The position numbers and the translations under genes were made by a program. The notes beneath the pieces are model-generated. The model saw nothing but the letters and a program-made list of their open reading frames with translations, was not told the origin of the DNA and made no database searches. DNA of 61,999 nucleotides from a virus (Duplodnaviria; Caudoviricetes): positions 1 to 61,999 of the IMG/VR virus record IMGVR_UViG_3300010413_000031. One strand, written 5' to 3'. This document shows, piece by piece, positions 14,749 through 30,795 of this stretch. Every line of letters starts with the position of its first letter. Positions within the stretch are counted from its first letter, which is position 1.

Positions 14749-14820
14749 AGAGGCGTGGTGTAAGGGCAACACGCTTGGCTCTGAACCAAGAGATTGTAGG
14801 TTCGATCCCTACCGCCTCTT
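14749..14820 (+). tRNA. trnQ: tRNA-Gln(CUG)
   Basis: Anticodon CTG. Confidence 0.9.
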
Positions 14821-14824
14821 CTGT

Positions 14825-14911
14825 GGAAAGCGAGCAGCAAGGTGCGCAATCGGCTTGCTAAGCCGAGAGGGCCGTAAGGCTCGCTGGGTTCGATTCCCAG
14901 GCTTTCCTCCA
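14825..14911 (+). tRNA. trnS: tRNA-Ser(GCU)
   Basis: Anticodon GCT, long variable arm, encoded CCA. Confidence 0.8.
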
Positions 14912-14913
14912 TT

Positions 14914-14986
14914 CGGGAGCTGGCGCAATTGGCAGCGCACCTGGTTTGGGGCCAGGGGGTTCGGGGTTCAAGTCCCCGGTTCCCGA
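14914..14986 (+). tRNA. trnP: tRNA-Pro(UGG)
   Basis: C1:G72, anticodon TGG, A73. Confidence 0.9.
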
Positions 14987-14988
14987 CT

Positions 14989-15062
14989 GTGGCCATGGTG
15001 TAATGGTAGCCCACCGGGTCGTGACCCCGGAGGCGTGGGATCGAAACCCACTGGTCACCCCA
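14989..15062 (+). tRNA. trnH: tRNA-His(GUG)
   Basis: Anticodon GTG, C73, encoded CCA; atypical T-loop ATCGAAA. Confidence 0.8.
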
Positions 15063-15063
15063 A

Positions 15064-15146
15064 GGAAGGTAGGGCACGGTGGCGTGCAACTGGTCTAGAA
15101 AACCAGCCCGGCCTTACGGCTGAGGGTTCGACTCCTTTACCTTCCT
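15064..15146 (+). tRNA. trnS: tRNA-Ser(AGA)
   Basis: CTGGT-CT-AGA-AA-ACCAG anticodon arm, long variable arm. Confidence 0.75.
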
Positions 15147-15150
15147 CTAT

Positions 15151-15223
15151 GCCCCTATAGCTCAGAGGACTAGAGCGCGTGGCTACGGACCACGGTGCGA
15201 GGGTTCGAATCCTTCTAGGGGCT
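15151..15223 (+). tRNA. trnR: tRNA-Arg(ACG)
   Basis: Anticodon ACG. Confidence 0.9.
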
Positions 15224-15227
15224 CTCT

Positions 15228-15300
15228 GCGAAGGTAGCTCAGCTGGTAGAGCACTGGTCTGAAAAGCCAGGTGTCGGTGGTTCGAATCCACCCCTTCGTA
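15228..15300 (+). tRNA. trnF: tRNA-Phe(GAA)
   Basis: Anticodon GAA, A73. Confidence 0.9.
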
Positions 15301-15357
15301 CTAGGGGCAGGACGATGGGATTGGGGAGCGCGTCCCTTGGGCCCCACCAGCCGATGC

Positions 15358-16255: not shown

Positions 16256-16661
16256 CGGAGCAGCCAACATCCAGCGTACACTCCGGGAGCTGGAGCGTAG
16301 AGGGTGGGACGCTCAATCCGTCGAGTGTTACATAGCAGCGGCCCGGCGCACCCGAGACCTGTTCGGGTTCGGGGACGTGCTGGCCTTCGAGCGTGGGAAC
16401 ATCTACATCATACAGGTCACATCCTACTCCGGCCTGTCCGCACGTAAGCGGAAGATACTGGAGTCGGAAGTGGCCAGAGCATGGGTGGGGGAGGCGGGCG
16501 GTAGGATACTCCTGCACGGGTGGAGGCGAGGCAAGCCACCTAAGGGCAGGAAGCGAGGTAAGTGGCAGCTTACTGAGAGGGAGATTACGGACGGTGACTT
16601 CTACGAAAGTAGGGCCCGAGCTAAACGCAAGAAGTCCGGGAAGGGTGCTGCTCGTAGGTAG
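16248..16661 (+). CDS. PD-(D/E)XK nuclease / Holliday-junction resolvase-like
   Basis: RDLFGFGDVLAF...IIQVTS pattern. Confidence 0.65.
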   Translation: MASGAANIQRTLRELERRGWDAQSVECYIAAARRTRDLFGFGDVLAFERGNIYIIQVTSYSGLSARKRKILESEVARAWVGEAGGRILLHGWRRGKPPKGRKRGKWQLTEREITDGDFYESRARAKRKKSGKGAARR

Positions 16662-18318
16662 GGACCCAGGAGAAACGGAGGTACGGATAGGCCGTCCCTT
16701 CGTGGGGGAAGCTGGACAAGTGTTGGACAGCGTGCTGCCTGCGTCCGGGCTGCAGCGCACCGACGTGAACATCACCAACGTGGTGCCCTGGAGGCCTAAG
16801 GACAACGAGTTCAAGAACCACGAGCCGTGGCAGATTGAGCGGGGCATGCAGGAGCTGGATGACCTGATCTACGAGCTGCGCCCTCAGATCATAGTGGCGT
16901 TCGGCAACGAGGCGGCATGGGCTACCATACCCAACTGGCCGGGGAATGACATATCCCACGCGCACGGCATCATGGAGAGGCGTGGGTACTTCTTCAAGGG
17001 CAAGCATGGGACATGGGTACTGGCCACCCTGCATCCCGCCAACGTCAAGTACCAGGTCATGCCCAATCTCATGCTGCTGGATCTGGATATGCGACGGTTG
17101 GACCTGTGGCTGCGTGGGAAGCTGCCTAGGGATGAGTGGCCTGAGATCAAGGTTGCGAGGGAGGCTGGGGATCTGGTCAAGCTGATGAAGGATCAGGTAC
17201 TGGCTACGGACATAGAGCTGAAGTGGGGCGGCAGGGAGGTACTGTGTGTCGGGTTCTGCGGGGACGATCTAGAGCCAGTCGTGGTACCGGATAACCTGCT
17301 GCCCCTAGCTTATGAGGTACTGGCCAACGGGAATCCCAAGGTCCTGCATCATGGGCAGTTCGACATCTATATGCTGCAGGAAGAGAAGGGGATACCCATT
17401 CACGGCCAGCTGCACGACACTATGTTCCAGCACTGGGCCCTGTTCCCGGAGCTGGCGTCGAAGGAGGAGACGGGCGGGGAGTACTCGGACCTGAGCAAGG
17501 CCACACGCATGACACGCAAGGGGCTAGCCTTCCTCATGAGCATGTATGGTAACTGGCCGTGGTGGAAGGACTACCCGGACGAGGACCACCCCAAGTTCAG
17601 GGAGCTGATGTTCATTCTCAACGGCAGAGACTGCTATGCCACACGCTGGCTACACTCGCTGCAGATAGCCAAGATCTACGAGGAGGCCGTGGACGAGCAG
17701 TACTACGAGGCCATGCGCATGGTGCCTATCGCCATCAAGATGCAGAGGCGGGGCATGCTGGTGAACGATGAACTGAGGCAGAAGAGGATAGAGATACTGA
17801 CCGAGAGGTTGACAGCCGCAGAAACAGACATAGTATTGGCAGGACTGAGCTATATCTGGGAGCACGAACTAGCCTCCTACAGGAAGATCAGGAGCTGCCC
17901 CTGCTGCCGTGGGTCGCTGCCCGGCAGAAAGCCGAGGCGCAAGACCAGGCAGTGCTGGAGCTGTGCTGGGTACGAAAAGGTGCCAAGCAAGGCTCAGCTG
18001 GTGTGGCAGCTGACTGCGGATGAGGGCGTGCATGTACTAACAGACCTGCCAATGGAGGAGTATCTAGCACGGCGGGAGGCGTGGCATGAGAAAGTGCGCA
18101 AGACCAAGAAGGCCGTGCTTGAGCGCTACATCCTCAAGCCCTGCAACTTCTGTGGCGGTAAGGGGTACATTGGATGGTATGAGTTCAATCCGTTCTCCAA
18201 CCAGCAGCTAGGCACGCTGCTGTACGATGTGATAGGGGTACCCAAGAGCCTGCTGGGGAAGAAGCGGCAGGTGGATGAGAACACCTTGGGCAGGGTCCTG
18301 CATTGGGCCAGGAGCTAA
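16594..18318 (+). CDS. polA: DNA polymerase family A, N-terminal part: uracil-DNA glycosylase + 3'-5' exonuclease + partial thumb
   Basis: VGRDPGETE..GRPFVGEAG and TLHPA (family-4-type UDG); TDIE, HHGQFD, NGRDC (Exo I-III); FNPFSNQQLGTLLY. GTG start inferred (the supplied ORF opens at 16393). Confidence 0.85.
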   Translation: MTSTKVGPELNARSPGRVLLVGRDPGETEVRIGRPFVGEAGQVLDSVLPASGLQRTDVNITNVVPWRPKDNEFKNHEPWQIERGMQELDDLIYELRPQIIVAFGNEAAWATIPNWPGNDISHAHGIMERRGYFFKGKHGTWVLATLHPANVKYQVMPNLMLLDLDMRRLDLWLRGKLPRDEWPEIKVAREAGDLVKLMKDQVLATDIELKWGGREVLCVGFCGDDLEPVVVPDNLLPLAYEVLANGNPKVLHHGQFDIYMLQEEKGIPIHGQLHDTMFQHWALFPELASKEETGGEYSDLSKATRMTRKGLAFLMSMYGNWPWWKDYPDEDHPKFRELMFILNGRDCYATRWLHSLQIAKIYEEAVDEQYYEAMRMVPIAIKMQRRGMLVNDELRQKRIEILTERLTAAETDIVLAGLSYIWEHELASYRKIRSCPCCRGSLPGRKPRRKTRQCWSCAGYEKVPSKAQLVWQLTADEGVHVLTDLPMEEYLARREAWHEKVRKTKKAVLERYILKPCNFCGGKGYIGWYEFNPFSNQQLGTLLYDVIGVPKSLLGKKRQVDENTLGRVLHWARS

Positions 18319-18320
18319 CT

Positions 18321-18998
18321 ATGGCTAACTACAACGGCTATAACACTTCGACAGGCTACATACAGTTTGCTAATACTACTACTGCGGGCACTGGTAGTAA
18401 CACTACTACGTGGGGAAACAGCAGTAGTGGCCTGTGGGTGCCCGAGTATCCACTGAATAGCAAGCCCATGAAGTTCGTGGGTGGTGCGCTGCATGGGCAG
18501 ATCAAGAAAGTCCCTGTTGTACATGACAGGATAGACGTGCCTGTTATGCAGCCATTTCCATACACGCTGGAAGACTCGGGCAAGGCCGCCGAGTATGTGT
18601 ATGAGAGCTATGATCTGATACACCACAAGGGCGAGTCATTCTTCGTACTACGTGAGCTATGGGAGGCCGAGCGTCCTGCTGTAGGGTTCTACAAGAACCC
18701 AAATAGGGACGAGTACCACATCATCGTCGTCACTACCAAGCCGGGCATTCTGGGGTTCAGTATCACAAGAAAGATGTATCACGCCCTAATGGAGGGACAG
18801 TTCCTGGAGCAGTTCCATAACGACCTCAAGGAAGTGAAGATGGGTGACCTGAACGAACTCATCTACATGAAGATGGCCGAGCGCTATGTTCCCAAGCCTG
18901 TGTTTCATGACGCAAAGGAGGACGACGAGCCGGTGCCTGAGAAGTGGGAGCTGGACGAGGAAGAGCTGGGTGACCCTGTGATGATCCCGGCGGCTTAA
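18321..18998 (+). CDS. Hypothetical protein between the two polA parts
   Basis: GGAG RBS; Thr/Asn-rich N-terminus, then FVGGALHG motif. Confidence 0.6.
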   Translation: MANYNGYNTSTGYIQFANTTTAGTGSNTTTWGNSSSGLWVPEYPLNSKPMKFVGGALHGQIKKVPVVHDRIDVPVMQPFPYTLEDSGKAAEYVYESYDLIHHKGESFFVLRELWEAERPAVGFYKNPNRDEYHIIVVTTKPGILGFSITRKMYHALMEGQFLEQFHNDLKEVKMGDLNELIYMKMAERYVPKPVFHDAKEDDEPVPEKWELDEEELGDPVMIPAA

Positions 18999-19017
18999 CA
19001 TGCCACACGAGTTGACT

Positions 19018-20037
19018 ATGGCCTGGCATAAAGCGAGGAAGCTGCAGATCCTTGAGATCCTGGAGCCTTACATGGTGGCTAAGCGGGACAGGACCGTGAT
19101 CGGCCACTATGAAAGGATAGAGCCGGGACCTGATGGTAGGGTGAGGACGGAGCCAAACCCCATAGGCACCAGTACGGGCAGGTTCAGCTCAAGCGAGAGC
19201 CCGCTCGATCCGTATTCCACCAACCTGCAGAACCTGAACAAGAAGGTGGCGCAGATCGATCCCGTCTATGCCATACGTGACTGCATCATTCCCGATCCGG
19301 GCTATGTGCTGTGGGCGGCAGACTACGCCGGGGCTGAGGCCCTGCTAGCCGCTGCCTACCAGCAGGACTGGGAGATGTACCAGATGCTGTTGGATGGAAA
19401 GGATGTGCATACATGGCACGCCTCCATCTTCTTCGACATGCCTGAGGAGCAGGTAGGCAAGGGCACGATCTACAGGCAGATAGCCAAGAACATAGGCTAC
19501 GGAGGGCAGTACAAGGCCAGCATATGGAAGCTGACCGAGACCATCAACAGGGAGGCCGAGCACACGGGCGTCAGGGTCACGCAGGCGCAGGTCGAGACGG
19601 CCTACACTCGCTGGTTGCAGCTGCACCCTGTCGAGGAGTGGTGGGAGAACACACGCCAGGAACTGAACACCCCGCCCAAGAACAGCCTGCGTAACTGTTT
19701 CGGGTTCAGGCGCAGGTTCTTCGCCCCCGATCCTGAGAAGCGGTTGAAGGAGGGGCTGGCCTTCTACCCACAAAGCACGGTGGCCTCCTGTATCAAGCGG
19801 GCCATGGTGAGAGTGGATGAGGAGCTGGACGATGGGCAGGAGATCATGCAGATCATGCAGATCCATGACGAGATCTTCGGGCAGGTGAAGGAGAACAAGG
19901 TGGACAAGTACATGCCTGAGATCGTGAAGATTCTGGAAGAGCCGTTCGAGATCCACGGCAAGGAGGTCTGGATTCCTGCCGACGCCAGCCTAGGTATGAG
20001 CTGGGGGAGCATGCGAGCATGGCAAAAGGCAGCCTAA
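19018..20037 (+). CDS. polA: DNA polymerase family A, polymerase part
   Basis: GTSTGRFSSS, NLQN, motif A ADYAGAE, motif B RQIAKNIGYG, motif C QIHDE; alternative start at 19000. Confidence 0.92.
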   Translation: MAWHKARKLQILEILEPYMVAKRDRTVIGHYERIEPGPDGRVRTEPNPIGTSTGRFSSSESPLDPYSTNLQNLNKKVAQIDPVYAIRDCIIPDPGYVLWAADYAGAEALLAAAYQQDWEMYQMLLDGKDVHTWHASIFFDMPEEQVGKGTIYRQIAKNIGYGGQYKASIWKLTETINREAEHTGVRVTQAQVETAYTRWLQLHPVEEWWENTRQELNTPPKNSLRNCFGFRRRFFAPDPEKRLKEGLAFYPQSTVASCIKRAMVRVDEELDDGQEIMQIMQIHDEIFGQVKENKVDKYMPEIVKILEEPFEIHGKEVWIPADASLGMSWGSMRAWQKAA

Positions 20038-20387
20038 TTAACTGGGTACGCGACCAGATATACGCGGTCGAGGATCTCCTGAATGTGAGGCCTGACCTCT
20101 TGCGGATGGGGGAGGCTCTCTGGCGTGAGATCCTGGCGGAGAGCTATACCAGCAGAACATGGCTTGCTCCCCAATTCGGAAGCTATGCATCAGGCGACTG
20201 GTTCAACATGACGTTCGACGGGATACAGGTGGAGCGAATGTATGATGCGCCGGGCAGTATTCCACCATGGGAGCTGCATATTCATGCGGACAGGCGTGTA
20301 TTCAGGTGCGACCCTCATGGCCCTCCACGTATATGTACGGGCGGAGAGAAGCTACGGACAATCTACGACGTGCTGTGCTATGCGTAA
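20019..20387 (+). CDS. Hypothetical protein
   Basis: Overlapping ORF with RBS. Confidence 0.5.
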   Translation: MAKGSLINWVRDQIYAVEDLLNVRPDLLRMGEALWREILAESYTSRTWLAPQFGSYASGDWFNMTFDGIQVERMYDAPGSIPPWELHIHADRRVFRCDPHGPPRICTGGEKLRTIYDVLCYA

Positions 20388-20601
20388 GCAGCAGAGCTAC
20401 CCTAGCCAGTACGAGATCTGGAACGTGTTCACTACCATCGTCTGTAAGGTTCTCAATGCAGATAACAAGGATAGGGTAGGGATAGCCGAGCGGGAGGCAC
20501 GGGCCAGGTTGGGTGAGGTGTACTCCGATCTACCTGAGAGGGTGGCCAACACAGCCCTGAGGCTGGTGGCGTGGATGGAGACGTGGAACAAGCATGGCTA
20601 A
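20380..20601 (+). CDS. Hypothetical protein
   Basis: Coupled ORF MRKQQSYP... Confidence 0.45.
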   Translation: MRKQQSYPSQYEIWNVFTTIVCKVLNADNKDRVGIAEREARARLGEVYSDLPERVANTALRLVAWMETWNKHG

Positions 20602-21601
20602 GTACGATCTGCTCAAGGCACCCATCGCCCATGTGGTCTCCGTCAACTACTACAAGGAGGCGTTGAACGCCTACCTGGGGACGGACGAGATCGAGAAGCT
20701 GGAGTTGAACCATGATTATGTACTTGGTGGCCTTCTGCCGGTGGGCGGATACCTACATCTGTACGGCCGGGAGAAGAGTGGGAAGACGAGGCTGGCGTGG
20801 CAGCTGGCGCGCTCTGTCGGTATCACTGGTCGGCCTTGGATGGGTTTTATCACTAATCGCACTGGCCCTGTGCTATGGCTTGAGCTGGACATGGGAACGG
20901 CTGAGTTCAAGTACGTCCTGGGTTCGGCGCAGGCTGCTGGCATGGGTGGGCATCCGGCCATACTTGGGCCAGGGAAGCATCATTACCTTAACGCACTATC
21001 ACCGCAAGGTCAGGACTTCCTCTACACTCTGGGGGTCATCCACAAGCCCATCCTCACAGTCGTTGACACTTTCACCGACTGCTATGAGGGAGAGCTGGAG
21101 AACGAGGTTATACGACGAGTTGTTGCAAGCTTCCGTTTCGCTCTTGCAGGCTCAAGCTTCGTATTCATTAACCATGAGCGAAGAACTAGCCAAGCTCTCA
21201 TCGCTAAAGACAAGCAGGACACCGATGCTGAGCTGGGAGGGGGCGAACTATCACGCAAGGCAAGCGGAGTACTACGACTTGTGCGTCACTCGGATGCAGC
21301 AGGCATTCTCAGCCTCAAGCGCATCAGGACTCAAAGGCATTGGACTGACCTCGGCCTCCGCATCACAGAGCATGGGTTCTGGCAGATTGACCATGCCCAT
21401 CTCACCGCCCGGATGCTAATCGCCCTGTGGCCTGACATTCCAGGGCTGAGCATGGAGGAGGCGAAGCAGTGCAAGAGCGCAGAGCAGGTGTTGGGCACGC
21501 TGCACAAGTACATGCCCCATCTAGATATGCACAAGCTGAAGGATGCCTACAGTCAAATGCACGGGGAGCTACCGTGGCAGCGCTGGCTGGGGCTACTATA
21601 G
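20594..21601 (+). CDS. RecA-family (AAA_25/RepA-like) replicative helicase
   Basis: Walker A GREKSGKT, VLWLELDMG, Walker B VVDTF, FINHER. Confidence 0.8.
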   Translation: MAKYDLLKAPIAHVVSVNYYKEALNAYLGTDEIEKLELNHDYVLGGLLPVGGYLHLYGREKSGKTRLAWQLARSVGITGRPWMGFITNRTGPVLWLELDMGTAEFKYVLGSAQAAGMGGHPAILGPGKHHYLNALSPQGQDFLYTLGVIHKPILTVVDTFTDCYEGELENEVIRRVVASFRFALAGSSFVFINHERRTSQALIAKDKQDTDAELGGGELSRKASGVLRLVRHSDAAGILSLKRIRTQRHWTDLGLRITEHGFWQIDHAHLTARMLIALWPDIPGLSMEEAKQCKSAEQVLGTLHKYMPHLDMHKLKDAYSQMHGELPWQRWLGLL

Positions 21602-21693
21602 TACTTATAGTACTAACTAATATATTAGCAAGTATTAGGCCAGAGTGCTGGCCTATCTAGTTGGCCTAGTAAAGCACCAATTCCACCAGGAGG

Positions 21694-21918
21694 ATGAACA
21701 GGATGGGCACCAGGACATACGCAGATGACGTGGCGTGGTTGGTTGAGACCTTCCATGACAGGCTGGAGTTGCTGGCTTCCGACGTGAGTCTGGATGATGG
21801 GAGGCTGTGGCTCACCCGGCGATGGTCAGAGCTTGGGCAGGGGGGTGGCACTATACGCGGCCGGGATATCATAGCGATCTTCGACTCATGGGAGAGCATA
21901 CGTAGGAAGAGCCCCTAG
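21694..21918 (+). CDS. Hypothetical protein
   Basis: AGGAGG RBS region. Confidence 0.5.
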   Translation: MNRMGTRTYADDVAWLVETFHDRLELLASDVSLDDGRLWLTRRWSELGQGGGTIRGRDIIAIFDSWESIRRKSP

Positions 21919-21942
21919 GGGGGTTGACCCGGAAGTTAACTT
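21917..21942 (+). promoter_or_regulatory. Short-spacer promoter element 1
   Basis: AGGGGGG TTGACC cggaagt TAACTT. Confidence 0.75.
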
Positions 21943-21969
21943 AGAGTGGACCCCAAAGGGAGGTGGCTT

Positions 21970-22167
21970 ATGCCCTTAGAGGCAAAACTTCTGTTGACTG
22001 GCGTGCTGGCTGTGGTGGTTGGCGTGCTGGCTGTAATACCAGTAGTCATGCTGGATGATTGTGGGCTGCACCGTACGGCAGAGGCCTTCGGTGCGATAGC
22101 GTGCGTCCTACTGTGTGTGGGCGCTGCACTCGTCGTAGTGGATGCGCTCATACTGATCTGGCGATAG
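21970..22167 (+). CDS. Small two-TM membrane protein
   Basis: GGAGGT RBS, hydrophobic. Confidence 0.55.
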   Translation: MPLEAKLLLTGVLAVVVGVLAVIPVVMLDDCGLHRTAEAFGAIACVLLCVGAALVVVDALILIWR

Positions 22168-22182
22168 GAGAGGGAGACGACT

Positions 22183-22362
22183 ATGACAGACGATGAGAAG
22201 CAGGAGCTGGTCGATCTGCTCCAGATAGTCAGGTCGGCCCTATCATCCAACGTGAAGGCATTGTGGTCGAAGCCCCAATTCCGTGACATGCAGAAGAAGA
22301 CGGCCCTGTATGCCATAGAGAAGATAGATGCCTACCTAAATGCATTGCGGGAGGGGGGTTGA
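22183..22362 (+). CDS. Hypothetical protein (59 aa)
   Basis: GGAG RBS, MTDDEKQELV... Confidence 0.5.
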   Translation: MTDDEKQELVDLLQIVRSALSSNVKALWSKPQFRDMQKKTALYAIEKIDAYLNALREGG

Positions 22363-22377
22363 CCGCCGGGTTAAATT
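22352..22377 (+). promoter_or_regulatory. Short-spacer promoter element 2
   Basis: AGGGGGG TTGACC gccgggt TAAATT. Confidence 0.75.
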
Positions 22378-22382
22378 AGAAT

Positions 22383-22693
22383 AGGCCGAGGGCGACCGAA
22401 GCTGCGGCTTGAGGGATTAGTAGCACTCGCTGCCCCACGCACGCCTTAGGTCTTGGTGGACGGTATCGACCACGGGACCTGAGGCCATGCAGTCCTCACC
22501 GTTATGAAGAGCCTGAGCGCCCACTCGCCATAGGCACCGCAGAGCCTAGAGTGACGGGGAGCAAACTGTTCCTCGACCAGGTTTGCGCCTGGTCTCAGAA
22601 CATTAAGGCGTGCATCACGCATTAGCACGCTGCGTGGGTGGAGAGAAGGAAGCTAGTAGTGGGAAACTGGCCGGTCGCCCGGCCTTTTCTTTT
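22383..22693 (+). ncRNA. Unclassified ~310-nt structured RNA / attenuator
   Basis: Gap without a credible ORF, complementary ends, many long helices, terminal hairpin + U-tract. Confidence 0.65.
22669..22693 (+). terminator. Intrinsic terminator
   Basis: GGCCGG-TCGC-CCGGCC-TTTTCTTTT. Confidence 0.7.
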
Positions 22694-22711
22694 GCAAGGG
22701 AGGAGGGCATT

Positions 22712-22942
22712 ATGATGGACGCAGGTGGCAGGGAGGTAGTGGTGGGCTCGATAGTGGAGGTACTGGTCGCGCGTAAGGCTTTGGTGCGGGACATTACGTA
22801 TGCCGATCAGGGCGAGCCCATCGCTACACTACAGTGGCAGGACAACCCACACGACACAGCGAGGGTACTATGGAACCACCAAAGGGCAAGGCTACTGTAT
22901 CAGTCAGGCAAGGACAGCGGCTGTGGGCAGCGCTCAAGATAG
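22712..22942 (+). CDS. Small SH3-like beta-barrel protein
   Basis: GGAGG RBS; DAGGREVVVGSIV pattern. Confidence 0.5.
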   Translation: MMDAGGREVVVGSIVEVLVARKALVRDITYADQGEPIATLQWQDNPHDTARVLWNHQRARLLYQSGKDSGCGQRSR

Positions 22943-23415
22943 CCCTTGAACGTGGCAGGAAGATCAAGCCCCAATTCCGCTGGGATACGCTTGGGGTGTA
23001 TGAGTCGCGTATCTTTCCCAAGGACAGCGAAACCATGGCCATACTGGTCTACTCTCCCACTAATGGCCACATCTTCATGAACGGGAGAGCTGCGGACGAG
23101 ATGCTTGCACAGGGTATGCTGATCCCGTGGGCTGTAGACATCCTGCTGCATGAGTTTGCTCATGCCATGGTAGCGGATGAGCACGGACCGAAAGTTCAGC
23201 CGCACGGAGTGGAGTGGCGGAGGCTGGCCCGAGAGCTGGGGTGTGTGCCCCAAGCCAGGGCCACGGATCATGAGCGGCTGCGCAGTTACAGCTGCATGAT
23301 AGTAGAGGAAGGAGGAAAGAAGAATGGCGTACGATTCACACTTAACGGCGATACGTCGGGGAAGAGCAAGCCGTCCGGGAAGAGCGTTGGTCGAGAAGAG
23401 ACTGGTTCCAGCTAA
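22834..23415 (+). CDS. SprT-like zinc metallopeptidase (start uncertain)
   Basis: LLHEFAH...HGVEWRRLARELG. Confidence 0.8.
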   Translation: MAGQPTRHSEGTMEPPKGKATVSVRQGQRLWAALKIALERGRKIKPQFRWDTLGVYESRIFPKDSETMAILVYSPTNGHIFMNGRAADEMLAQGMLIPWAVDILLHEFAHAMVADEHGPKVQPHGVEWRRLARELGCVPQARATDHERLRSYSCMIVEEGGKKNGVRFTLNGDTSGKSKPSGKSVGREETGSS

Positions 23416-23926
23416 GGACGGCTGGGCTCGCTTCGTGCTGGACTACGGAGCGGGGTTCGGAGACGACGCACAGGCCCACGGCTGGCATGCCTATGACCCT
23501 AACTTCAGCAACATCAGCGAGTTACCGACGTGGCCAGCCAAGTTCGATTACATTGTATGCATCTACGTTCTCTGTGTGTGTACGCGTGATGAGATCGTGG
23601 ATATCATGGGCGACATACTCAGGCGCCTTCGTCCGGGGGGCGTAGCTTACTTCGCAGTACGCAGGGATGGGGGTCGCCAGCTTGGCGTGATCGAACGAGC
23701 AGGTGGGAAGCGCACCTACCAGAGTGATGTATACCTGGATCTGCCGCGTGTGCTCTCCACCTACGGCTTTGACATCTACGAGTGGAGGAAGGATGCGGGA
23801 CGCACGAACGATATTCATGAAGAGTGTGCGCGAGCCGAAGCTAGTGCCCTCATCAAATTTGTGGGTACTGAAGGCTGTGGCATACAACCAGAAGATGTCG
23901 GGAAGGAAGAGGAAGACGATCAGTAA
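23324..23926 (+). CDS. Class I SAM-dependent methyltransferase
   Basis: VLDYGAGFG motif I, YDPNF, FDYIVCIYVL, LRPGG. Confidence 0.85.
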   Translation: MAYDSHLTAIRRGRASRPGRALVEKRLVPAKDGWARFVLDYGAGFGDDAQAHGWHAYDPNFSNISELPTWPAKFDYIVCIYVLCVCTRDEIVDIMGDILRRLRPGGVAYFAVRRDGGRQLGVIERAGGKRTYQSDVYLDLPRVLSTYGFDIYEWRKDAGRTNDIHEECARAEASALIKFVGTEGCGIQPEDVGKEEEDDQ

Positions 23927-24476
23927 GGGCAGATGGAAGGGCATGCCCATGTACAACCTCACTCTGGAAGAGCGAGCCACATGCCCGACTGACTGTCCAC
24001 AGTGGGAGGACTGTTATGGTAACAACATGCCATACGCAGGACGTTATCAAGCTGGGCCAGATCTTGAAGGGGCTATTGCCAGAGATGTCGAGCATCTCAG
24101 TGGGAAGCACCCGGACGGTTTCGTTGTCAGACTCCACGTTCTGGGAGATTTTTACAGCGTGGGCTATGTCAGACTGTGGCTCGGCCTTGTGGAACGATAC
24201 CCTGCTCTTCGTGTATACGGATTCACACACCGGCAGCATGACACAGGTATCGGTGCGGAAGTATCCAGGGGGCAGGGTCCTCATTTTCGTATACTCAGAT
24301 CAGATCCAACAGTACCCGATGATCCACTCCCTGCTGCATGGACTCTTAAAGACGGGGAAGTGGGGGCGAGGCCTGATTCGGTGCTTTGCCCATGGTATAG
24401 CGGCAAGACTGAGAGTTGCCTCACCTGCGGGCTCTGTTGGAACGGAAGCATCAACGTCAGCTTCCCCAGACACTAG
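23793..24476 (+). CDS. GP88-like Cys-rich (radical-SAM-like) protein
   Basis: TCPTDCP...CY, RLHVLGDFYS, C-terminal CP...CLTCGLC. Confidence 0.7.
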   Translation: MRDARTIFMKSVREPKLVPSSNLWVLKAVAYNQKMSGRKRKTISKGRWKGMPMYNLTLEERATCPTDCPQWEDCYGNNMPYAGRYQAGPDLEGAIARDVEHLSGKHPDGFVVRLHVLGDFYSVGYVRLWLGLVERYPALRVYGFTHRQHDTGIGAEVSRGQGPHFRILRSDPTVPDDPLPAAWTLKDGEVGARPDSVLCPWYSGKTESCLTCGLCWNGSINVSFPRH

Positions 24477-24484
24477 GAGGTAGC

Positions 24485-24724
24485 ATGAGCGTAGAAATCA
24501 CGGAGGCCCCCAAGCAGTATGGAAGATGGATAATCTGGGGCTGGGCCCTTTTCTCAGGGCCTCAGGCTTATGTCTTCGACACGCAGGCAGAGTTGGATGC
24601 CTTCCTGTTTGGGTGCGAAGAGGCAAATGGATGGATGGAGTATGCAGTCTTCGAGACGAAGGAGGAAGCGATCAACCACATGAAGGAGAGGGGAGCATAT
24701 GAACAAGAAGGAGCAGAGACATAG
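24485..24724 (+). CDS. Hypothetical protein
   Basis: AGGAGGT RBS. Confidence 0.55.
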   Translation: MSVEITEAPKQYGRWIIWGWALFSGPQAYVFDTQAELDAFLFGCEEANGWMEYAVFETKEEAINHMKERGAYEQEGAET

Positions 24725-24977
24725 GCTGGAGCAGATGGTGCTCACAGCCAACACGCTCAAGTGGCGGCTCAAGCAGTCTGCTCTGTGGGCAGAGGAACTG
24801 GAGACATTCCTGCGTGAGCTGTATGAACAAGAAGAGGAAGCACAGGAGTTGGCCGAGAGGATAGAGGGCAACTATGTCGAAGCAAAACCGAGGCCTGCTG
24901 GGGCTGGAGAAGAAGATGCGTCTAGGTCTGACCGTGCCAGACCTGCCTGCATTGGCAGCCAAAAGAGCGAAGGGTAA
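24699..24977 (+). CDS. Hypothetical coiled-coil protein
   Basis: RBS, overlaps neighbours. Confidence 0.5.
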   Translation: MNKKEQRHRLEQMVLTANTLKWRLKQSALWAEELETFLRELYEQEEEAQELAERIEGNYVEAKPRPAGAGEEDASRSDRARPACIGSQKSEG

Positions 24978-25218
24978 GAAGGCCTGGCGCTTCTACTGGC
25001 CGGACAACTACACACCCGTCAAGCGTGAGGGCTGGCAGTGGGTATCCCAGCCGTTGACCAGCGGCAGGGAACTCAAGCTTCCACGCTACATGCAGGTGGG
25101 CTCGCACGGATACACACGCGTGGTGCCCAACAGACTGGAGAAGGTCATGGGCTGGCTCACCAAGCATGGTTTCACGGTCACATGGGAGGACAAGAATCAT
25201 GGCAAAGAGCAGGACTGA
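24874..25218 (+). CDS. Hypothetical protein
   Basis: Overlapping ORF with RBS. Confidence 0.5.
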   Translation: MSKQNRGLLGLEKKMRLGLTVPDLPALAAKRAKGKKAWRFYWPDNYTPVKREGWQWVSQPLTSGRELKLPRYMQVGSHGYTRVVPNRLEKVMGWLTKHGFTVTWEDKNHGKEQD

Positions 25219-25381
25219 GGCTCAGATGGAGCTGTGGGAGGCGATGATCGAGTTCTATCGCTGGGGTGGAGGACAGGGTGAGATCCACCCATGGGTTGAG
25301 GGGGCGTACATCGACTACCGTAACCGGCGTGCAGCCGAGTCGAAGGAGAAGAGGGCCGATGAAAGCACCAGTTCCGAATGA
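25199..25381 (+). CDS. Hypothetical protein
   Basis: GGAGG RBS. Confidence 0.45.
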   Translation: MAKSRTEAQMELWEAMIEFYRWGGGQGEIHPWVEGAYIDYRNRRAAESKEKRADESTSSE

Positions 25382-25613
25382 AAGCCCCAATTCCGTGAGG
25401 CAAGGGAACCACGGCCCCAACCGGGCCAAGTCATTCGTGAGGGGCCGGAACAAGAATAAGCGGGCCGGGCGCAAGTATCCTAAGTTATTCAATTACAAGA
25501 GGATACGGCCCCGGTCCAGACATCTGCGACCAGGTATGAGGGTGCAGTCGCCCGACGGCAAGAAGTATGTCGTGGGTGTGCATGGTCAGCTCGTCAGGGT
25601 ATCGAGCTGGTGA
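25359..25613 (+). CDS. Small basic hypothetical protein
   Basis: RBS; Arg/Lys-rich. Confidence 0.5.
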   Translation: MKAPVPNESPNSVRQGNHGPNRAKSFVRGRNKNKRAGRKYPKLFNYKRIRPRSRHLRPGMRVQSPDGKKYVVGVHGQLVRVSSW

Positions 25614-25638
25614 GGGGGGTTGCGGAGCGGGTTAAATT
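25613..25638 (+). promoter_or_regulatory. Short-spacer promoter element 3
   Basis: AGGGGGG TTGCGG agcgggt TAAATT. Confidence 0.7.
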
Positions 25639-25684
25639 CAAACTGGTCGCGCCGCTCGAACCCCAATACAAACAGGAGGACATC

Positions 25685-26080
25685 ATGAGTGAGGAGAGGA
25701 CGCATACAGGACGGGTGAACCGAACGTGGAAGGAGGTCGTGCGTAGTGAAGCGAAGCTCGCCCGTATCCTACAGTGGAACAACCAAGACCTCAACAGGCA
25801 CCAGACGCAGATCACCAATCTGCAACGGAGAGTGGCCATGCTTGAGGCACGCCTTGATTACATACAGAGCAAGGCGGAGACGGTGACGCTGACAGAGAAG
25901 GCTAAGACAGCCCTATCGCAGCCGGTCGTGTTCATCACTGAGCATACCACCAGGAACCGTGGCGAGTGGGCCAAGCAAGTGAAGGGCGTGCTCGCAAGTC
26001 TGCTGCATGCATGGGACGAAGGTGATATCTACGCGTTCCTGGATGAGAACAACGGTGCGCTCAAGGATCTCCTGACGTAG
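25685..26080 (+). CDS. Hypothetical coiled-coil protein
   Basis: AGGAGG RBS after element 3. Confidence 0.6.
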   Translation: MSEERTHTGRVNRTWKEVVRSEAKLARILQWNNQDLNRHQTQITNLQRRVAMLEARLDYIQSKAETVTLTEKAKTALSQPVVFITEHTTRNRGEWAKQVKGVLASLLHAWDEGDIYAFLDENNGALKDLLT

Positions 26081-26090
26081 GTGTGAGCTG

Positions 26091-26116
26091 AGGGGGGTTG
26101 ACGAGCGGCGCAAATT
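26091..26116 (+). promoter_or_regulatory. Short-spacer promoter element 4
   Basis: AGGGGGG TTGACG agcggcg CAAATT. Confidence 0.75.
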
Positions 26117-26173
26117 GGAGTTGCGCCGGAAGCGGCACGCCACTCACCCATACCGAAGGGAGAGTAACATGTA

Positions 26174-26395
26174 ATGTCAGAGCTAGCTATACGGATCGCC
26201 ATACTCGCGTTCTTGCTGGCGATCTCGGGATTGTTGTTGTTGTTCACACACGTATTTGGCCCGCACCATCGGTCAGCCTCTGATGCATACTCCGAGCGCG
26301 GCTCGGCCAAGGCCTCTCATGCGTCTAACACCGAGCAGCCGGGCCACCAATCTTCTCCGCATGGGGCGGAGAGGGATGCATCCCAAAACCCATAA
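26174..26395 (+). CDS. Possible small membrane protein overlapping a structured RNA
   Basis: Hydrophobic N-terminus; preceded by ATG-TAA. Confidence 0.3.
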   Translation: MSELAIRIAILAFLLAISGLLLLFTHVFGPHHRSASDAYSERGSAKASHASNTEQPGHQSSPHGAERDASQNP

Positions 26396-26410
26396 GAGGG
26401 AGAGCACATC

Positions 26411-26944
26411 ATGAACGGACTCGACGCTTTCAAACAGAACGGCGGCAGCGCGCTGGCAGCCACTGACTTGATCAAGGTGTCGATCACCGGATCGCGCGGC
26501 GGCAAGGGCGCCGAGAAGATCAGCACCTACTTCGGTCCTGATGGGATCGAGCTAGATGCCGACTTCAATCCCAAGCCGCATGCCATGCCTCTCGATCTGA
26601 GTGGCGTGGCTGGTGCTGGCGGAGAAGCCAAGCAGCCCCCGGCCTTCCCTGAGGCGGAGTACAAGGCCGCCCTCAAGGAGAGCTTGGACAAGGCGCAGGC
26701 GATCCTCAGCGCCCACCAGCAGTCCTTGACGCAGTTCAAGGGTGGTGGCAACACCACTATCGAAGACGGCATCATCGATGCCTGTCTGCGGTACTGCTAC
26801 GACTACCTCAACTTCTCTGAGATCGACGACGCCACGAAGTTCGTCATCACTCGTAAGGACGTGGTCCTTGCGAAGGACTGGCGGAAGGTCAACGGCATCA
26901 ACCGGACCGTGTATGAGGTCAGGCTGGCCAGCCGGTTCGGTTAG
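26411..26944 (+). CDS. Candidate ubiquitin-like (beta-grasp) protein
   Basis: Ends ...VYEVRLASRFG-stop; residue pattern parallels ubiquitin; upstream of the ThiF gene. Confidence 0.4.
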   Translation: MNGLDAFKQNGGSALAATDLIKVSITGSRGGKGAEKISTYFGPDGIELDADFNPKPHAMPLDLSGVAGAGGEAKQPPAFPEAEYKAALKESLDKAQAILSAHQQSLTQFKGGGNTTIEDGIIDACLRYCYDYLNFSEIDDATKFVITRKDVVLAKDWRKVNGINRTVYEVRLASRFG

Positions 26945-27040
26945 TCGTAGCACAGGAGAAGGGTCAGCCTATGGCTTAGCGGTCAGAACAGGCCGATAGA
27001 TCGGATGTGAATCCGCTATGCTACGCATGTAACACCCGCT

Positions 27041-27074
27041 GGGGGCAGGCCCATGTCTGCCCCCTCTCTTTTTC
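27041..27074 (+). terminator. Intrinsic terminator
   Basis: GGGGGCAGGC-CCAT-GTCTGCCCCC-TCTCTTTTT. Confidence 0.8.
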
Positions 27075-27093
27075 ATACGCGCAGGAGGCAACA

Positions 27094-28737
27094 ATGAAGG
27101 TAGCTCAAGAGCCTAAGACGAAGGACGAACAGCAGGCGAAGAACCTGAGACTGAGCAGCTATATCTGCCCCATCTGCCAGAGCTACATGGCTAGGCAGCA
27201 CTACACGAAGCAGGGCACTCGCTATGAGATCGAGTACAATATGTGTGGCTGCCCGCCTGTCTATGGTCTGGTCTGGCGCAACGACAGTCAGCGACAGGGC
27301 AGGTACTACCACAACCGATGGCTGTGGATGCCTAACGGCAAGTCGCAGCTATACCATGGCCAGAGGTCGCCGGGTCGATGGATCAACGTGCATACCGATG
27401 AGCCCGTAGCCAAGCCAGACTGGATGCGATGGCTCAAGGTGCCCATCATCATTGACCGCTCGTCGGGGCGGGAGTTCAAGGCATTGGTGGAGATCGAAGG
27501 TGAACAGCGGCTTGTCGATTGCATCGGCACGAACAGGCCGGGGCTGTACCATGCCTTGTGTGTGAATCCGCCTGTAGACTACTGGGAAGGGCTGCCAGGT
27601 TTAAGTGCGAAGAGACTGGCCATGTATAAGGAAAAGCTGAGGGTTGTGAATAAGCATCTGGTGATCGTGCCCAAGGCACATCGCAAGAGGTATGCTCGCA
27701 CCCCTCATGCCAAGGGGGTCACCCTAACCACGATCCATACCAAGGATCAGGGTCGGGGCAAGTATGAGGAGTTCATCCCCCGCTGGTCAGTCAGGGAGTT
27801 CGGCATAGAGAAGTGGCAGTTCGTCTCCAAGGATGTGATAGAGGACGACGGCAAGAAGCGAGAGACGATCCTCAGATACAAGAAGCCGCACGAGAGCGAT
27901 GCCCTGATTGGTCAGCAGTCAGGCGCAAATGCATGGTGTCATACTCCAATACACCCCTGTGAGTGGGAGACTGACCCACGCCAAGGGTACAAGGCCGTCC
28001 GAGCACACCTTGATGACTACGGCTTCGAGCACTTGCACATAGATTGGATACAGCGCAGGTTCCTGTTCTACACGTCTGACGGGAACCGCAAGACTCAGGT
28101 AGGACAGATCAAGCACCCCGACCCTATGTGGGGCAGCGCCAAGAGAATCCTGTTGTGGGCCGACGAGTGCTGGGCCATGCAGCTCAGTGCTCAGGCAGAT
28201 AATGGGGTGTGGCGCATGGTCACGCCAGGTATGCTGTTCGTGGCTGATGACATGACATTCATCGCCACCTACCAGTGCCTGCGAATAGGTCAGAGCCTGA
28301 CTGAGTATCGAGCGGGCATCAATCTCTATGCCCCTCACGCGGCACCCATGTCATTGGCTGATTTCATCACTGGTCCGCTATCTGATTACTGGGACAGCAA
28401 GGGCAACATCAAGTTGATCCGGCCCCAGATTCAGATGGTCAGGGCCAAGGAAGTGGCTACGACTGGCGACCTACAGAAGGCGCTGCTGGATAAGATACAG
28501 AAGAAGTATGAGGGCTTCCTGCTCATACAGGGCTGGGTCATATCCTATGTCACCTGCCCTCTCTGCGGTTACCATTTGCACCACTTGGTCTATGACAAGG
28601 AGAAGCAGGCCATCAAGGAGTGCAGCAACTGTGGCAAGGCAGGTATCGAGCTGAGTATGGAGGCAACCACCCACTTCATTACATCAGAGGGGCCACTCAA
28701 CAAGGTGCTGTCCAAGAAAGGAGCCAAGATAGCATGA
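27094..28737 (+). CDS. Hypothetical 547 aa protein with terminal Zn ribbons
   Basis: CPIC...CGC at the N-terminus, CPLC...CSNC at the C-terminus; AGGAGG RBS. Confidence 0.65.
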   Translation: MKVAQEPKTKDEQQAKNLRLSSYICPICQSYMARQHYTKQGTRYEIEYNMCGCPPVYGLVWRNDSQRQGRYYHNRWLWMPNGKSQLYHGQRSPGRWINVHTDEPVAKPDWMRWLKVPIIIDRSSGREFKALVEIEGEQRLVDCIGTNRPGLYHALCVNPPVDYWEGLPGLSAKRLAMYKEKLRVVNKHLVIVPKAHRKRYARTPHAKGVTLTTIHTKDQGRGKYEEFIPRWSVREFGIEKWQFVSKDVIEDDGKKRETILRYKKPHESDALIGQQSGANAWCHTPIHPCEWETDPRQGYKAVRAHLDDYGFEHLHIDWIQRRFLFYTSDGNRKTQVGQIKHPDPMWGSAKRILLWADECWAMQLSAQADNGVWRMVTPGMLFVADDMTFIATYQCLRIGQSLTEYRAGINLYAPHAAPMSLADFITGPLSDYWDSKGNIKLIRPQIQMVRAKEVATTGDLQKALLDKIQKKYEGFLLIQGWVISYVTCPLCGYHLHHLVYDKEKQAIKECSNCGKAGIELSMEATTHFITSEGPLNKVLSKKGAKIA

Positions 28738-29495
28738 AGATCGCACTCATAGGCTGCGGGTTCCTTGGCTCGATCTGGCTCGAAGAGGTAGCCAAACGCC
28801 TGTTTGCTCTGGAGCGGGAGAATGTACACCTGCTGCTGATAGACAAGGATACCTTCGAGCGTAGGAACGCAGCCAATCAGAATTTCCGGCCACTCGTCCT
28901 GCATGTCTCAGGGAAGATGGAACAGCATACCCCGGCCAAGGCAGAGTACCTGAGCCGCATGGCATGGGACTATGGTATCTCTGCTGAGTGGCAGAAAGCA
29001 GACATCATAGACGATCCAGGCCTACTGTTAGGGGCGCAGCTGATCGTCGATGCTCTCGACAACTTGCCAGCCAGACATGCTGTGTGGAAGCAGGGCATGG
29101 CTCAAGGAACACCGATCCTGCACATGGGTATCAATGAGCATGGGACAGGAGAGGTCGAGTGGACTTGGGCCACGGTACAAGGCTGGCACCTGTCTCCCAT
29201 CAAGCTGGGAGCGCAGTCCATAGATAAACTGGAAGAGCAGCCCAAGCATCCACCCTGCCACTTGGTTCAGATGCGTGGGCTGGGGCTGAACCTTGGGCTG
29301 GCAGCCGCCAAGGCAACCACCCTATTCATTGGGGAGGACATAGAGGAGACGTTCGATGAGGGTCCCCAGCTACCTGGATACGGCCTGCTTACCTATTGGC
29401 TTGCTGATAGGCAGAGTCATTCACTCGACACGGAGAGGATTCATGTCAAAAAAGAAGGGCAAGAACTCCCAGAAGCAGAAGGAGCCGCAGCGTAA
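28734..29495 (+). CDS. ThiF/E1-like adenylyltransferase
   Basis: IALIGCGFLGS, DKDTFERRNAANQ, AKAEYL, IVDALDN; candidate catalytic Cys in HPPCH. Confidence 0.9.
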   Translation: MKIALIGCGFLGSIWLEEVAKRLFALERENVHLLLIDKDTFERRNAANQNFRPLVLHVSGKMEQHTPAKAEYLSRMAWDYGISAEWQKADIIDDPGLLLGAQLIVDALDNLPARHAVWKQGMAQGTPILHMGINEHGTGEVEWTWATVQGWHLSPIKLGAQSIDKLEEQPKHPPCHLVQMRGLGLNLGLAAAKATTLFIGEDIEETFDEGPQLPGYGLLTYWLADRQSHSLDTERIHVKKEGQELPEAEGAAA

Positions 29496-30795
29496 GGGAG
29501 AGTACAGCCCCGGCACCATACTCGTGCCGTATGGTAAGGAAGTGTTCGGCACTACGCCAGCACATCAGGTCGAGCCGGGTGACTATGAACGCGATGTACA
29601 CGGCGAGATCACCCGCATCTTTGACTGCCGCAGCAGGAGCGGCGTCATCGAGTGGCATGATGTGGTGTTCGACGACGAGAGCGGCGAGTACCTACTGCTG
29701 GATGAAGTGATCGCCAGGTATGAGGAAGAGGAGGATGAAGAGGCGATCAGCAAAGCAGAGGCAGAGCAGCTCGGTCTGCCATGGGCGCCGCCCAAGAAGA
29801 AAGGGGGTACAGTTACCAGACACACGGAGTACCAGCCTAAGGGGGTCCAGTACACAAACAGCAAGGGCAAGAGCAAGTACACGTATCAGCCGACGGACTC
29901 CAAGGGTATCAGGCTGGTGGTCAAGGAGACCAATGAGGTCTACGAGACTAAGCAGTACTGGGTCTGCAAGGACTTCAGGGATAGCGGGATGCCATACACT
30001 ACGGATGACAGTGGTGTGGCTGTGTTCGTGGTGGGCATCAATCAGCTGCGGTTCAAGAAGCTAACACCTACCGTTCAGATGTGTGGGTACGACGCGACTG
30101 CCAAGTATGTCGAGCACATCTGCGGCAAGAAGCTGGACTTCAACGATCAGGACTTCTACCGCAGCCACCCGTGGACTGACCAGCATGGTATTGGACTGGC
30201 TGCCATGCCCACCGTGATCCATCAGTTGGTCGAGCCATACAAGCTGGGTGTCTCACGCATCAGGTTCCCCAAGGGAATCTACCTCAAGTTTGAGGACAGA
30301 GATGCGTGGGTGGCGTCCTTGGGTGAGAACCCCATGCAGGGGGACAACTACGAATTCGCTGAGGCTATGGAGCAGGACCTCAACGAAGTACAGGAACTGT
30401 TCCGCATAGATTATGGAGAGCTTCCCTTTGCCCCATCTGTCTGTGCGTATGACACTAGCATCATGTCAGGGGGTGGTCACGTAAGTTATATCGGGCCAAG
30501 AGGTTCCAGCTACAAGAGCTGGCAAATCTCTGTGTGCATAGCCCCCCTCAATTCCTTCAAGTACAAGGTGCCGTTGGTGTTGACGCCTATCGACAAGGCA
30601 AAGGACGATATGTTGGCACTCGACTGGGATGAGGTGAGAGATGAGCAAGGGAAGCGGGTCAGCAAGGTCTGGAAAGGGTCCACCGGATACACCGGAGCGC
30701 CGTATGGCAGTGGCCGTGGCACTGGTGGTGCTGGTGCTAGGCAGTCTGGCTATAGTCGTCCCGACCCATACGAACACGCTTGGTTGGGTGACTAG
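29443..30795 (+). CDS. Hypothetical 450 aa protein with Gly-rich tail
   Basis: GGAGAGG RBS, overlaps ThiF. Confidence 0.65.
   Translation: MSKKKGKNSQKQKEPQRKGEYSPGTILVPYGKEVFGTTPAHQVEPGDYERDVHGEITRIFDCRSRSGVIEWHDVVFDDESGEYLLLDEVIARYEEEEDEEAISKAEAEQLGLPWAPPKKKGGTVTRHTEYQPKGVQYTNSKGKSKYTYQPTDSKGIRLVVKETNEVYETKQYWVCKDFRDSGMPYTTDDSGVAVFVVGINQLRFKKLTPTVQMCGYDATAKYVEHICGKKLDFNDQDFYRSHPWTDQHGIGLAAMPTVIHQLVEPYKLGVSRIRFPKGIYLKFEDRDAWVASLGENPMQGDNYEFAEAMEQDLNEVQELFRIDYGELPFAPSVCAYDTSIMSGGGHVSYIGPRGSSYKSWQISVCIAPLNSFKYKVPLVLTPIDKAKDDMLALDWDEVRDEQGKRVSKVWKGSTGYTGAPYGSGRGTGGAGARQSGYSRPDPYEHAWLGD

Follow-up and report, generated by a model that had tools for sequence, protein, structure and literature searches.

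A candidate structured RNA between a promoter-like motif and an intrinsic terminator in the genome of an uncultured phage

The window (i.e., the whole stretch of DNA analyzed here, 61,999 bp) is a whole IMG/VR record of an uncultured phage, with an estimated completeness of 98%, a G+C content of 58%, and ORFs that lie nearly all on the plus strand. Pfam matches are scarce among the proteins of this phage. A 2,172-aa ORF at the genome start (103 to 6621) has as its only PHROG matches weak C-terminal ones to giant phage proteins, a DarB-like antirestriction family (E value, 1e-4) among them. The candidate RNA described here (22383 to 22693) fills the gap from 22363 to 22711, which is the largest non-tRNA gap between plus-strand ORFs, and is located between replication genes and a block of genes that carry no promoter motif of their own (Table 1). 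The upstream DNA polymerase is encoded in three ORFs (16393 to 18318, carrying a UDG-superfamily domain; 18303 to 18998; and 19000 to 20037), and the related loci L004 to L012 likewise have separate N-terminal and C-terminal parts. The promoterless block begins with a 76-aa ORF (g76), continues with the SprT-like, methyltransferase, and GP88 genes, and also includes another three or four small ORFs; it spans approximately 2.9 kb (22712 to about 25600) and ends before 25613. A coding region was rejected for the stretch from 22383 to 22693, since it holds no plus-strand ORF of at least 40 aa and its open frames had no PHROG match; these results support its being non-coding. The frame of g76 is open upstream as far as a GTG at 22610, a start from which the last 84 nt of the RNA would be coding. 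Use of this start is unlikely, because a strong Shine-Dalgarno (SD) sequence is present at 22697 to 22708 and because the terminator would fall inside the gene.

Table 1. Features at and around the candidate RNA locus (positions in the window)
Feature	Position	Strand	Basis or remark
tRNA array, 25 genes	13362-15301		ARAGORN
Upstream genes: family-A DNA polymerase in three ORFs, then AAA_25 helicase-like gene (20594-21601), then three small ORFs			Pfam
59-aa ORF	22183-22362	+	Stop codon overlapped by the promoter-like motif copy at 22352
Promoter-like motif copy (AGGGGGGTTGAC-N9-A-NN-TT...)	22352-22382	+	One of 8 copies; last base directly before the P1 5' arm
P1 5' arm: AGGCC (22383-22387), 2-nt bulge, GGGCGACCG (22390-22398)	22383-22398	+	Pair probabilities, 0.76-1.0
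Small hairpin AAGC-UGCG-GCUU, stacked on P1	22399-22410	+	Fold
Hairpin, 3+5 bp	22413-22436	+	Fold; in most prefix folds
CCCACGCA, 5' strand of an 8-bp helix with TGCGTGGG (22631-22638)	22434-22441	+	Pair probability, 0.2-0.53
Long, nearly perfect hairpin; core 22443-22485 (18 bp with bulges)	22439-22490	+	In every prefix fold of at least 110 nt
Hairpin, 4+5 bp	22525-22554	+	Fold
Two directly adjacent 8-bp hairpins (22556-22574 and 22575-22594)	22556-22594	+	Fold; prefix folds
Hairpin 22607-22631 and GCGTG/CACGC-rich segment with alternative long-range partners	22607-22638	+	
Last internal hairpin, 6 bp, 8-nt loop	22652-22671	+	Fold
Intrinsic terminator GGCCGG-UCGC-CCGGCC + UUUUCUUUU	22669-22693	+	Terminator scan; 6/6 G-C pairs
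P1 3' arm: CGGTCGCCC (22672-22680) and GGCCT (22681-22685)	22672-22685	+	Doubles as part of the terminator
SD AAGGGAGGAGGG and g76	22697-22942	+	First gene of the promoterless block
Downstream genes: 76-aa ORF (g76; ATG at 22712), SprT-like, methyltransferase, GP88-family		+	Pfam
Seven other copies of AGGGGGGTTG(AC)-N9-A-NN-TT	21917, 25613, 26091, 31378, 34880, 35695, 36294	+	All in the middle region (21.9-36.3 kb)

The motif that opens the gap includes AGGGGGGTTG, which occurs in exact form at eight places from 21917 to 36294, always on the plus strand (expected number, 0.22; none of 100 shuffles reached eight). The alignment of the copies delimits a conserved block of approximately 28 nt, whose spacing, in our reading of the alignment, is unlike that of sigma-70 promoters. 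On the basis of this spacing, and of the position, polarity, and repetition of the copies, we take the motif to be a putative phage-specific (middle) promoter. After each of the seven other copies, an ORF of at least 65 aa opens 53 to 84 nt from the motif start, with an SD sequence before its start codon; the copy at 22352 has no such start for 360 nt. When IMG/VR was searched for the motif pattern, 34 single matches on 34 different contigs were obtained (i.e., a background level), with no cluster elsewhere. A near-copy (GAGGGGGTTGAC) was observed in the 5' arm of a 13-bp terminator-like hairpin (13285 to 13313) directly before the tRNA array.

The minimum free energy (MFE) calculated with RNAfold for the plus strand of 22383 to 22693 is -143.2 kcal/mol, compared with -117.6 ± 5.2 kcal/mol for 100 dinucleotide shuffles (z = -4.9; none of the 100 as good), in agreement with a preliminary description of this DNA that had proposed a structured RNA of about 310 nt. 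The minus strand of the same stretch yielded a z score of -4.0, as is expected of any helix-rich segment. In a GC-corrected scan of the genome, 2 of 1,234 windows of 311 nt were as extreme as the exactly framed RNA, a comparison in which the frame of the RNA was chosen to fit and those of the other windows were not; two windows of similar GC-corrected stability are coding windows. After GC correction, no 311-nt window is more stable than 37551 to 37861 (residual z = -4.1), which overlaps a sigma-70-like site (37649 to 37622; 11 of 12 matches) and a terminator-like hairpin (37618 to 37599), both on the minus strand in a genome that otherwise uses the plus strand almost throughout.

The two ends of the stretch are predicted to close in a helix, P1, whose AGGCC and GGCCT termini pair precisely where the preliminary description had placed them. 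The P1 duplex (-27.7 kcal/mol) was matched by none of 20,000 random 16-mer pairs from the genome, and its 5' arm has partners of equal strength only at 22670/22671 among 61,983 plus-strand positions. In the equilibrium ensemble, the probability of P1 is approximately 1, while those of the local terminator hairpin and of a 10-bp alternative are approximately 0; forcing these two structures costs 7.2 and 6.4 kcal/mol, respectively. The 10-bp alternative had been reported as a perfect pairing, and GCACGCCTTA (22439 to 22448) is indeed perfectly complementary to TAAGGCGTGC (22604 to 22613). By our own arithmetic, however, such a complement is expected about 0.05 times in 311 nt, so that this pairing alone is borderline with respect to chance. 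The complementarity of CCCACGCA and TGCGTGGG, claimed likewise, was also recovered, and the long-range 8-bp helix CCCACGCA/UGCGUGGG has an ensemble probability of about 0.5. The pairings that had been interpreted as mutually exclusive folds are thus possible, but the proposed mutual exclusion was not supported, as one fold dominates the ensemble. For the nascent 5' end, an alternative is a local hairpin over 22383 to 22410 (-11.3 kcal/mol).

Inside P1, the RNA is predicted to branch at 8 points into a structure of at least nine hairpins, of which those at 22420 to 22433, 22443 to 22485, 22531 to 22548, 22556 to 22574, 22575 to 22594, 22607 to 22631, and 22652 to 22671 are robust across prefix folds. 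The second of these (13+3+2 bp) is exactly as claimed earlier, and the 5' side of the long hairpin to which it belongs (22439 to 22448) is the segment able to pair with 22604 to 22613 instead. A further hairpin that had been proposed at 22567 to 22602 is really the adjacent pair listed in Table 1. The strand CCCACGCA is in competition with a second CCCAC copy at 22520 to 22524. CACGC/GCGTG words occur six times in the RNA (22607 to 22638, plus 22436/22440), which makes it the densest cluster of the genome (mean, 1.1 per 311 nt; next maximum, 5). A CsrA-type sponge was considered and rejected, since GGA motifs number 7 versus the approximately 7 expected by our own count.

Hairpins also occur near the beginning of other presumptive transcripts of this promoter class. 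GC hairpins are present at a distance similar to that of the P1 arm after four other motif copies (26091, 31378, 34880, and 36294), and that of the copy at 34880 (GGGCCGAC/GTCGGCCC) matches the P1 5' arm in its spacing from the motif and resembles the P1 arms. If 22399 to 22671 are removed, the distance from the motif to the ATG becomes 87 nt (i.e., just above the 53 to 84 nt of the other copies). Given the hairpins at a similar place in four copies, the likeness of the 34880 hairpin, and the 87-nt distance, P1 looks like a regular 5' stem-loop of such transcripts, with a loop that holds approximately 273 nt of additional structured RNA. Between the other motif copies and their start codons, a GC hairpin and an AC-rich spacer similar to CACCCATAC are often found.

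The 3' end of the RNA carries the features of an intrinsic terminator (i.e., a GC-rich hairpin and a U-tract on the transcribed strand): GGCCGG (22669 to 22674) and CCGGCC (22679 to 22684) enclose a 4-nt loop and are followed by TTTTCTTTT (22685 to 22693). The hairpin has an energy of -11.1 kcal/mol alone and -15.4 kcal/mol when extended. This terminator, which had been proposed from the letters and was also reported by the terminator scan, has only two convincing counterparts on the plus strand of this genome (13285 and 27041). The switch between terminator and antiterminator that had been built upon it was not borne out. P1 uses 22672 to 22685 (i.e., the terminator's 3' strand and three bases of its 5' strand), and it too sets a helix flush with the U-tract. 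The antiterminator logic fails, because both conformations put a helix where the terminator needs one; an attenuator of the classical kind would have an alternative helix that hides the 5' strand and leaves no helix at the U-tract, and the arrangement found here is different.

No sigma-70-like site was found after the terminator, and no copy of the motif lies between 22352 and 25613, which suggests that the genes from 22712 to about 25600 depend on read-through. Since these genes have no promoter motif of their own, the unit necessarily gates them to some degree; the earlier proposal that it gates the SprT-like, methyltransferase, and GP88 genes therefore stands as far as the position directly upstream of promoterless genes is concerned, while the specific switch mechanism does not. 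In a read-through RNA, the SD of g76 can pair with the terminator's CCUUUUCUUU tract. Sequestration of the SD by the U-tract was rejected as a significant structure, as it was no better than in shuffles (z = +0.6). The terminator at 27041 belongs to a unit of the same layout (i.e., approximately 95 nt of structured non-coding RNA, a terminator, an SD, and an ATG at 27095), so that terminators before promoterless genes look like a habit of this phage. The unit from 26945 to 27095 exhibits a closing stem (GTAGCA...TGCTAC), a T-arm-like hairpin, and a 10-bp terminator (27041 to 27064), with a fold z score of -2.7; it had no Rfam match at an E value of ≤1 and was not called by ARAGORN.

We compared the candidate RNA with described families. 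At the gathering thresholds of Rfam 15, the whole window yielded tRNAs only, with no match to riboswitches, ribozymes, or GOLLD/ROOL. At an E value of ≤10, the best match in 22250 to 22800 was ctRNA_p42d (20.1 bits against a cut-off of 50), which covers the terminator only. ARAGORN detected no tmRNA. The view that the RNA is not a tmRNA, RNase P RNA, signal recognition particle (SRP) RNA, 6S RNA, or intron was upheld by this Rfam search, in which no family matched, and T-box and retron msr were dismissed in the same way, with no Rfam or ARAGORN support for any of tmRNA, RNase P, SRP, 6S, T-box, or retron msr. For 6S RNA in particular, the fold is multi-branched rather than a rod with a large central bubble, and there was no match to RF00013. 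A MITE or other small mobile element was also rejected: inverted termini are present (i.e., P1), but no second copy was found in the genome, in 161 loci, or in three whole records, and no flanking duplication was seen.

Searches for homologues returned the RNA itself only. No match was obtained in 50,697 phage records with blastn, in IMG/VR with an exact 19-mer, or in 185,579 genomes with two exact strings. Blastn and nhmmer gave no match in 80 GP88-anchored loci or in 48 polymerase-anchored loci, a set that excludes the two closest polymerase homologues (61% and 54%; on JGI contigs). A single-sequence covariance model (R1) run against 47 loci and the window retrieved only its own source, with fragments outside the window at E values of ≥0.08; it detected no such RNA in three whole related virus records and nothing at an E value of ≤1 in the 80 GP88 loci. 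Among approximately 160 related or unrelated loci, no homologue of the RNA was thus found, and the helices have no covariation support for that reason.

The neighboring genes are nearly as isolated. A tblastn search of the phage records with AAA_25 gave no match, and searches of IMG/VR and JGI metagenomes with the SprT-like and AAA_25 proteins, as single queries or as an alignment, gave no relatives. A whole-library search yielded one relative of the SprT-like protein (41%), and the only two relatives of AAA_25 (60% and 44%) are on contigs of approximately 1.3 kb. A search with the polymerase alignment yielded loci of no more than 47% identity, 45 from metagenomes, 3 from IMG/VR, and 1 from a genome. 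Four of the related loci (L005, L047, L048, and L007) represent the same kind of phage, with a common order of PD-(D/E)XK nuclease, AAA_24, 30 tRNAs, and polymerase; they are without homologues of AAA_25, SprT, the methyltransferase, and GP88, and also without the RNA (blastn, nhmmer, and model R1). The GP88 family is large (3,961 matches at an E value of ≤1e-10), and the best 80 IMG/VR loci contained neither SprT nor the RNA. An analogous RNA in L005 was considered and rejected, as a 496-nt ORF-free gap (19300 to 19796) folds like its shuffles (z = -0.06) and has no Rfam match. That gap of L005, a 67-kb phage, contains a tRNA-like anticodon/T-arm segment, and at 18659 to 18768 of L005 a tRNA model match spans 110 nt, with a long insertion that is possibly an intron. 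The RNA from 22383 to 22693 belongs to no described family, while its kind (i.e., a promoter-proximal structured phage RNA with a terminator) is already known.

The phage lineage itself is found, with hardly any change, in samples of marine sediment, mangrove, and soil. In 17 DNA-type runs from 7 studies of these habitats, at least 87% of the sampled words of 21600 to 23600 were recovered, while three metatranscriptome runs contained 6 to 11% of them. DNA contigs of two runs from different studies (X15 and X17; a soil run versus a marine sediment run) span the RNA with no differences inside it, which leaves no compensatory changes to count; the only differences are at 20956 and 22750 (i.e., 2 differences in the approximately 5 to 6 kb covered within 20000 to 26000). 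Contigs from RNA libraries, at depths of 3 to 4, cover 20508 to 20702 and 22696 to 22915 (X18) and 21381 to 21747 (X20). The stretch from 22383 to 22693 is not covered by the contigs of these two libraries, which at a depth of about 3 cannot show absence, strand, or ends. One X18 contig (depth, 3.2) starts at 22696 (i.e., 3 nt past the U-tract) and covers the 76-aa ORF, which may reflect a processed or restarted 5' end or chance.

Our preferred reading, which we advance tentatively (probability, roughly 0.45), is that 22352 to 22693 is a self-contained transcription unit in the middle gene region for a short, sealed, terminated RNA, which doubles as a throttle on read-through. The phage-specific promoter motif would fire at approximately 22380 to 22390, and the non-coding transcript would fold into a multi-hairpin body whose first 16 nt and last 14 nt close as P1. 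Transcription would stop at the GC hairpin and U-tract, releasing an RNA of approximately 300 nt that is probably stable, given its sealed ends. Once the 3' arm is transcribed, it could form the local 6-bp hairpin or P1, which is much stronger, and in both cases a product of about 300 nt with paired ends would be the default. The mRNA for g76, the SprT-like, methyltransferase, and GP88 genes, and the small ORFs would then come solely from polymerases that pass the terminator, and the unit would act as an attenuator, setting the level and possibly the timing of downstream expression. P1 would be the ordinary 5' stem-loop of this promoter class, its loop replaced by approximately 273 nt of structured RNA. 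The motif family and its position, the missing coding capacity, the fold statistics, the terminator, and the lack of a motif copy downstream are observations, from which we infer the promoter role of the motif, the transcript ends, the stability, and the attenuation. An abundant stable RNA might have been expected among the contigs of the RNA libraries, where none was obtained, although contigs at a depth of about 3 cannot show absence.

A bolder version, which seems improbable to us, is that a large RNA folding co-transcriptionally behind the phage promoter is the first of a new class, either a put-like processive antiterminator of four times the size of put or a sealed 300-nt RNA acting in trans on a host machine in the middle phase. 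We regard the RNA, which is known from one sequence, as a well-supported candidate rather than a discovery. If real, it would combine a promoter, a body, and a terminator within 340 bp, would join a short list of big structured phage RNAs, and would be experimentally tractable; it would also show the dosing of a SprT-like protease, methyltransferase, and GP88 block by read-through in a lineage with almost no annotated genes.

The succession of promoter, structured leader, terminator, and promoterless genes would equally suit a purely cis-acting sensor, in which the leader binds a ligand, a tRNA, a protein of the phage or the host, or the polymerase (as in HK022 put or EAR-like elements) and decides on the passage of the terminator, with the terminated RNA as a by-product. 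Several alternative pairings around the repeated CACGC/GCGUG and CCCAC words would provide for such a decision, as would the nascent 5' hairpin, which could later swap into P1, and a purine stretch (22640 to 22649), the U/C tract, and the SD might form an anti-anti-SD/anti-SD/SD triple. We consider a pure sensor doubtful, since no aptamer or leader family of Rfam, which may hold no put or EAR models, matched even at an E value of ≤10, the alternatives lie 6 to 7 kcal/mol above the MFE, P1, which would replace the terminator hairpin, itself borders the U-tract and so lacks the geometry of an antiterminator, a length of 300 nt is several times that of put, and a single sequence offers no covariation that would define a binding core. 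The position of P1, where other motif copies have a simple hairpin, together with the resemblance of the 34880 hairpin to the P1 arms, the 87-nt motif-to-ATG distance without the insert, and the absence of the RNA from phages of the same family, could instead mean that a 5' stabilizer hairpin was overgrown or invaded by approximately 273 nt of foreign or duplicated sequence, which would persist for being harmless and would have no specific function. This is unlikely in our judgment, given that the insert is far more structured than its shuffles and contains many well-formed hairpins, that neither a second copy in the genome nor a target-site duplication was seen, and that the sequence is invariant between the two DNA runs from different studies.

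The dyads might also be protein sites in the DNA (i.e., a replication origin, an operator cluster, or a packaging signal), the RNA fold being incidental. The locus lies just after replication genes (DNA polymerase and the AAA_25 helicase-like gene), holds the densest CACGC/GCGTG cluster (6 words per 311 nt, the mean being 1.1), and folds nearly as well on the minus strand. We regard such an element as very unlikely, because the motif, the U-tract, and their polarity fit a plus-strand RNA, the G+C content (0.60) is not AT-rich, there is no GC-skew inflection, no iterons or direct repeats are present, and the CACGC cluster is barely above others (6 versus 5). A replication origin was also rejected by skew, with no inflection at the RNA locus. 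That the stretch has no function at all, as a decayed gene remnant or a spacer whose stability is a chance extreme, is compatible with its being a single sequence and with the two coding windows of similar GC-corrected stability. It is nevertheless quite unlikely, as a unique and very strong pairing links two independently defined landmarks (i.e., the promoter end and the terminator), the z score is -4.9, and 350 nt of junk is seldom retained in a phage genome, this gap being the largest of its kind here.

The unit of our preferred reading shares traits with several known systems. Stabilizing stem-loops occur at the 5' ends of bacterial and phage mRNAs, and P1 is similar in placing a helix within a few nucleotides of the transcript start, as is the case after four other motif copies; unlike these stem-loops, P1 surrounds another 273 nt of structured RNA and has a 3' strand that is shared with the terminator. 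The RNA also resembles stand-alone structured phage RNAs that have a promoter and a terminator to themselves (e.g., GOLLD, ROOL, and manA of Rfam, and the candidates in the catalogue of Fremin et al. 2023; PMC10690425) in being phage-borne, non-coding, highly folded, and of a function that is not known. Short strings of the RNA did not occur in the searched part of the supplements of PMC10690425. Classes of the GOLLD, ROOL, and manA type are defined by many covarying homologues, whereas the RNA described here is a singleton with no Rfam match and cannot yet be called a new class. HK022 put consists of two stem-loops in approximately 70 nt. What the RNA shares with put and EAR is a structured stretch that directly follows a phage promoter and precedes a terminator; the RNA here is different in its length (about 300 nt) and its hairpins (at least nine), and an action on the polymerase would be conjectural. 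In lambda, a short transcript from pR' to tR' (the "lambda 6S RNA") precedes the late genes, which are read through to after modification by Q. Among the 62 + 14 ORFs of our phage, no Pfam or PHROG match to a Q-like gene was found, which is weak evidence since most ORFs are without any match. Compared with the lambda 6S RNA, the RNA here is far more structured, has a helix closing its 5' and 3' ends, fronts a small block in the middle region, and is unrelated in sequence. The layout is nonetheless that of lambda pR'-tR': a promoter (here a putative one, recognized by its repeated motif), a non-coding transcript of a few hundred nucleotides, an intrinsic terminator, and promoterless genes, with a terminated RNA as the probable default.
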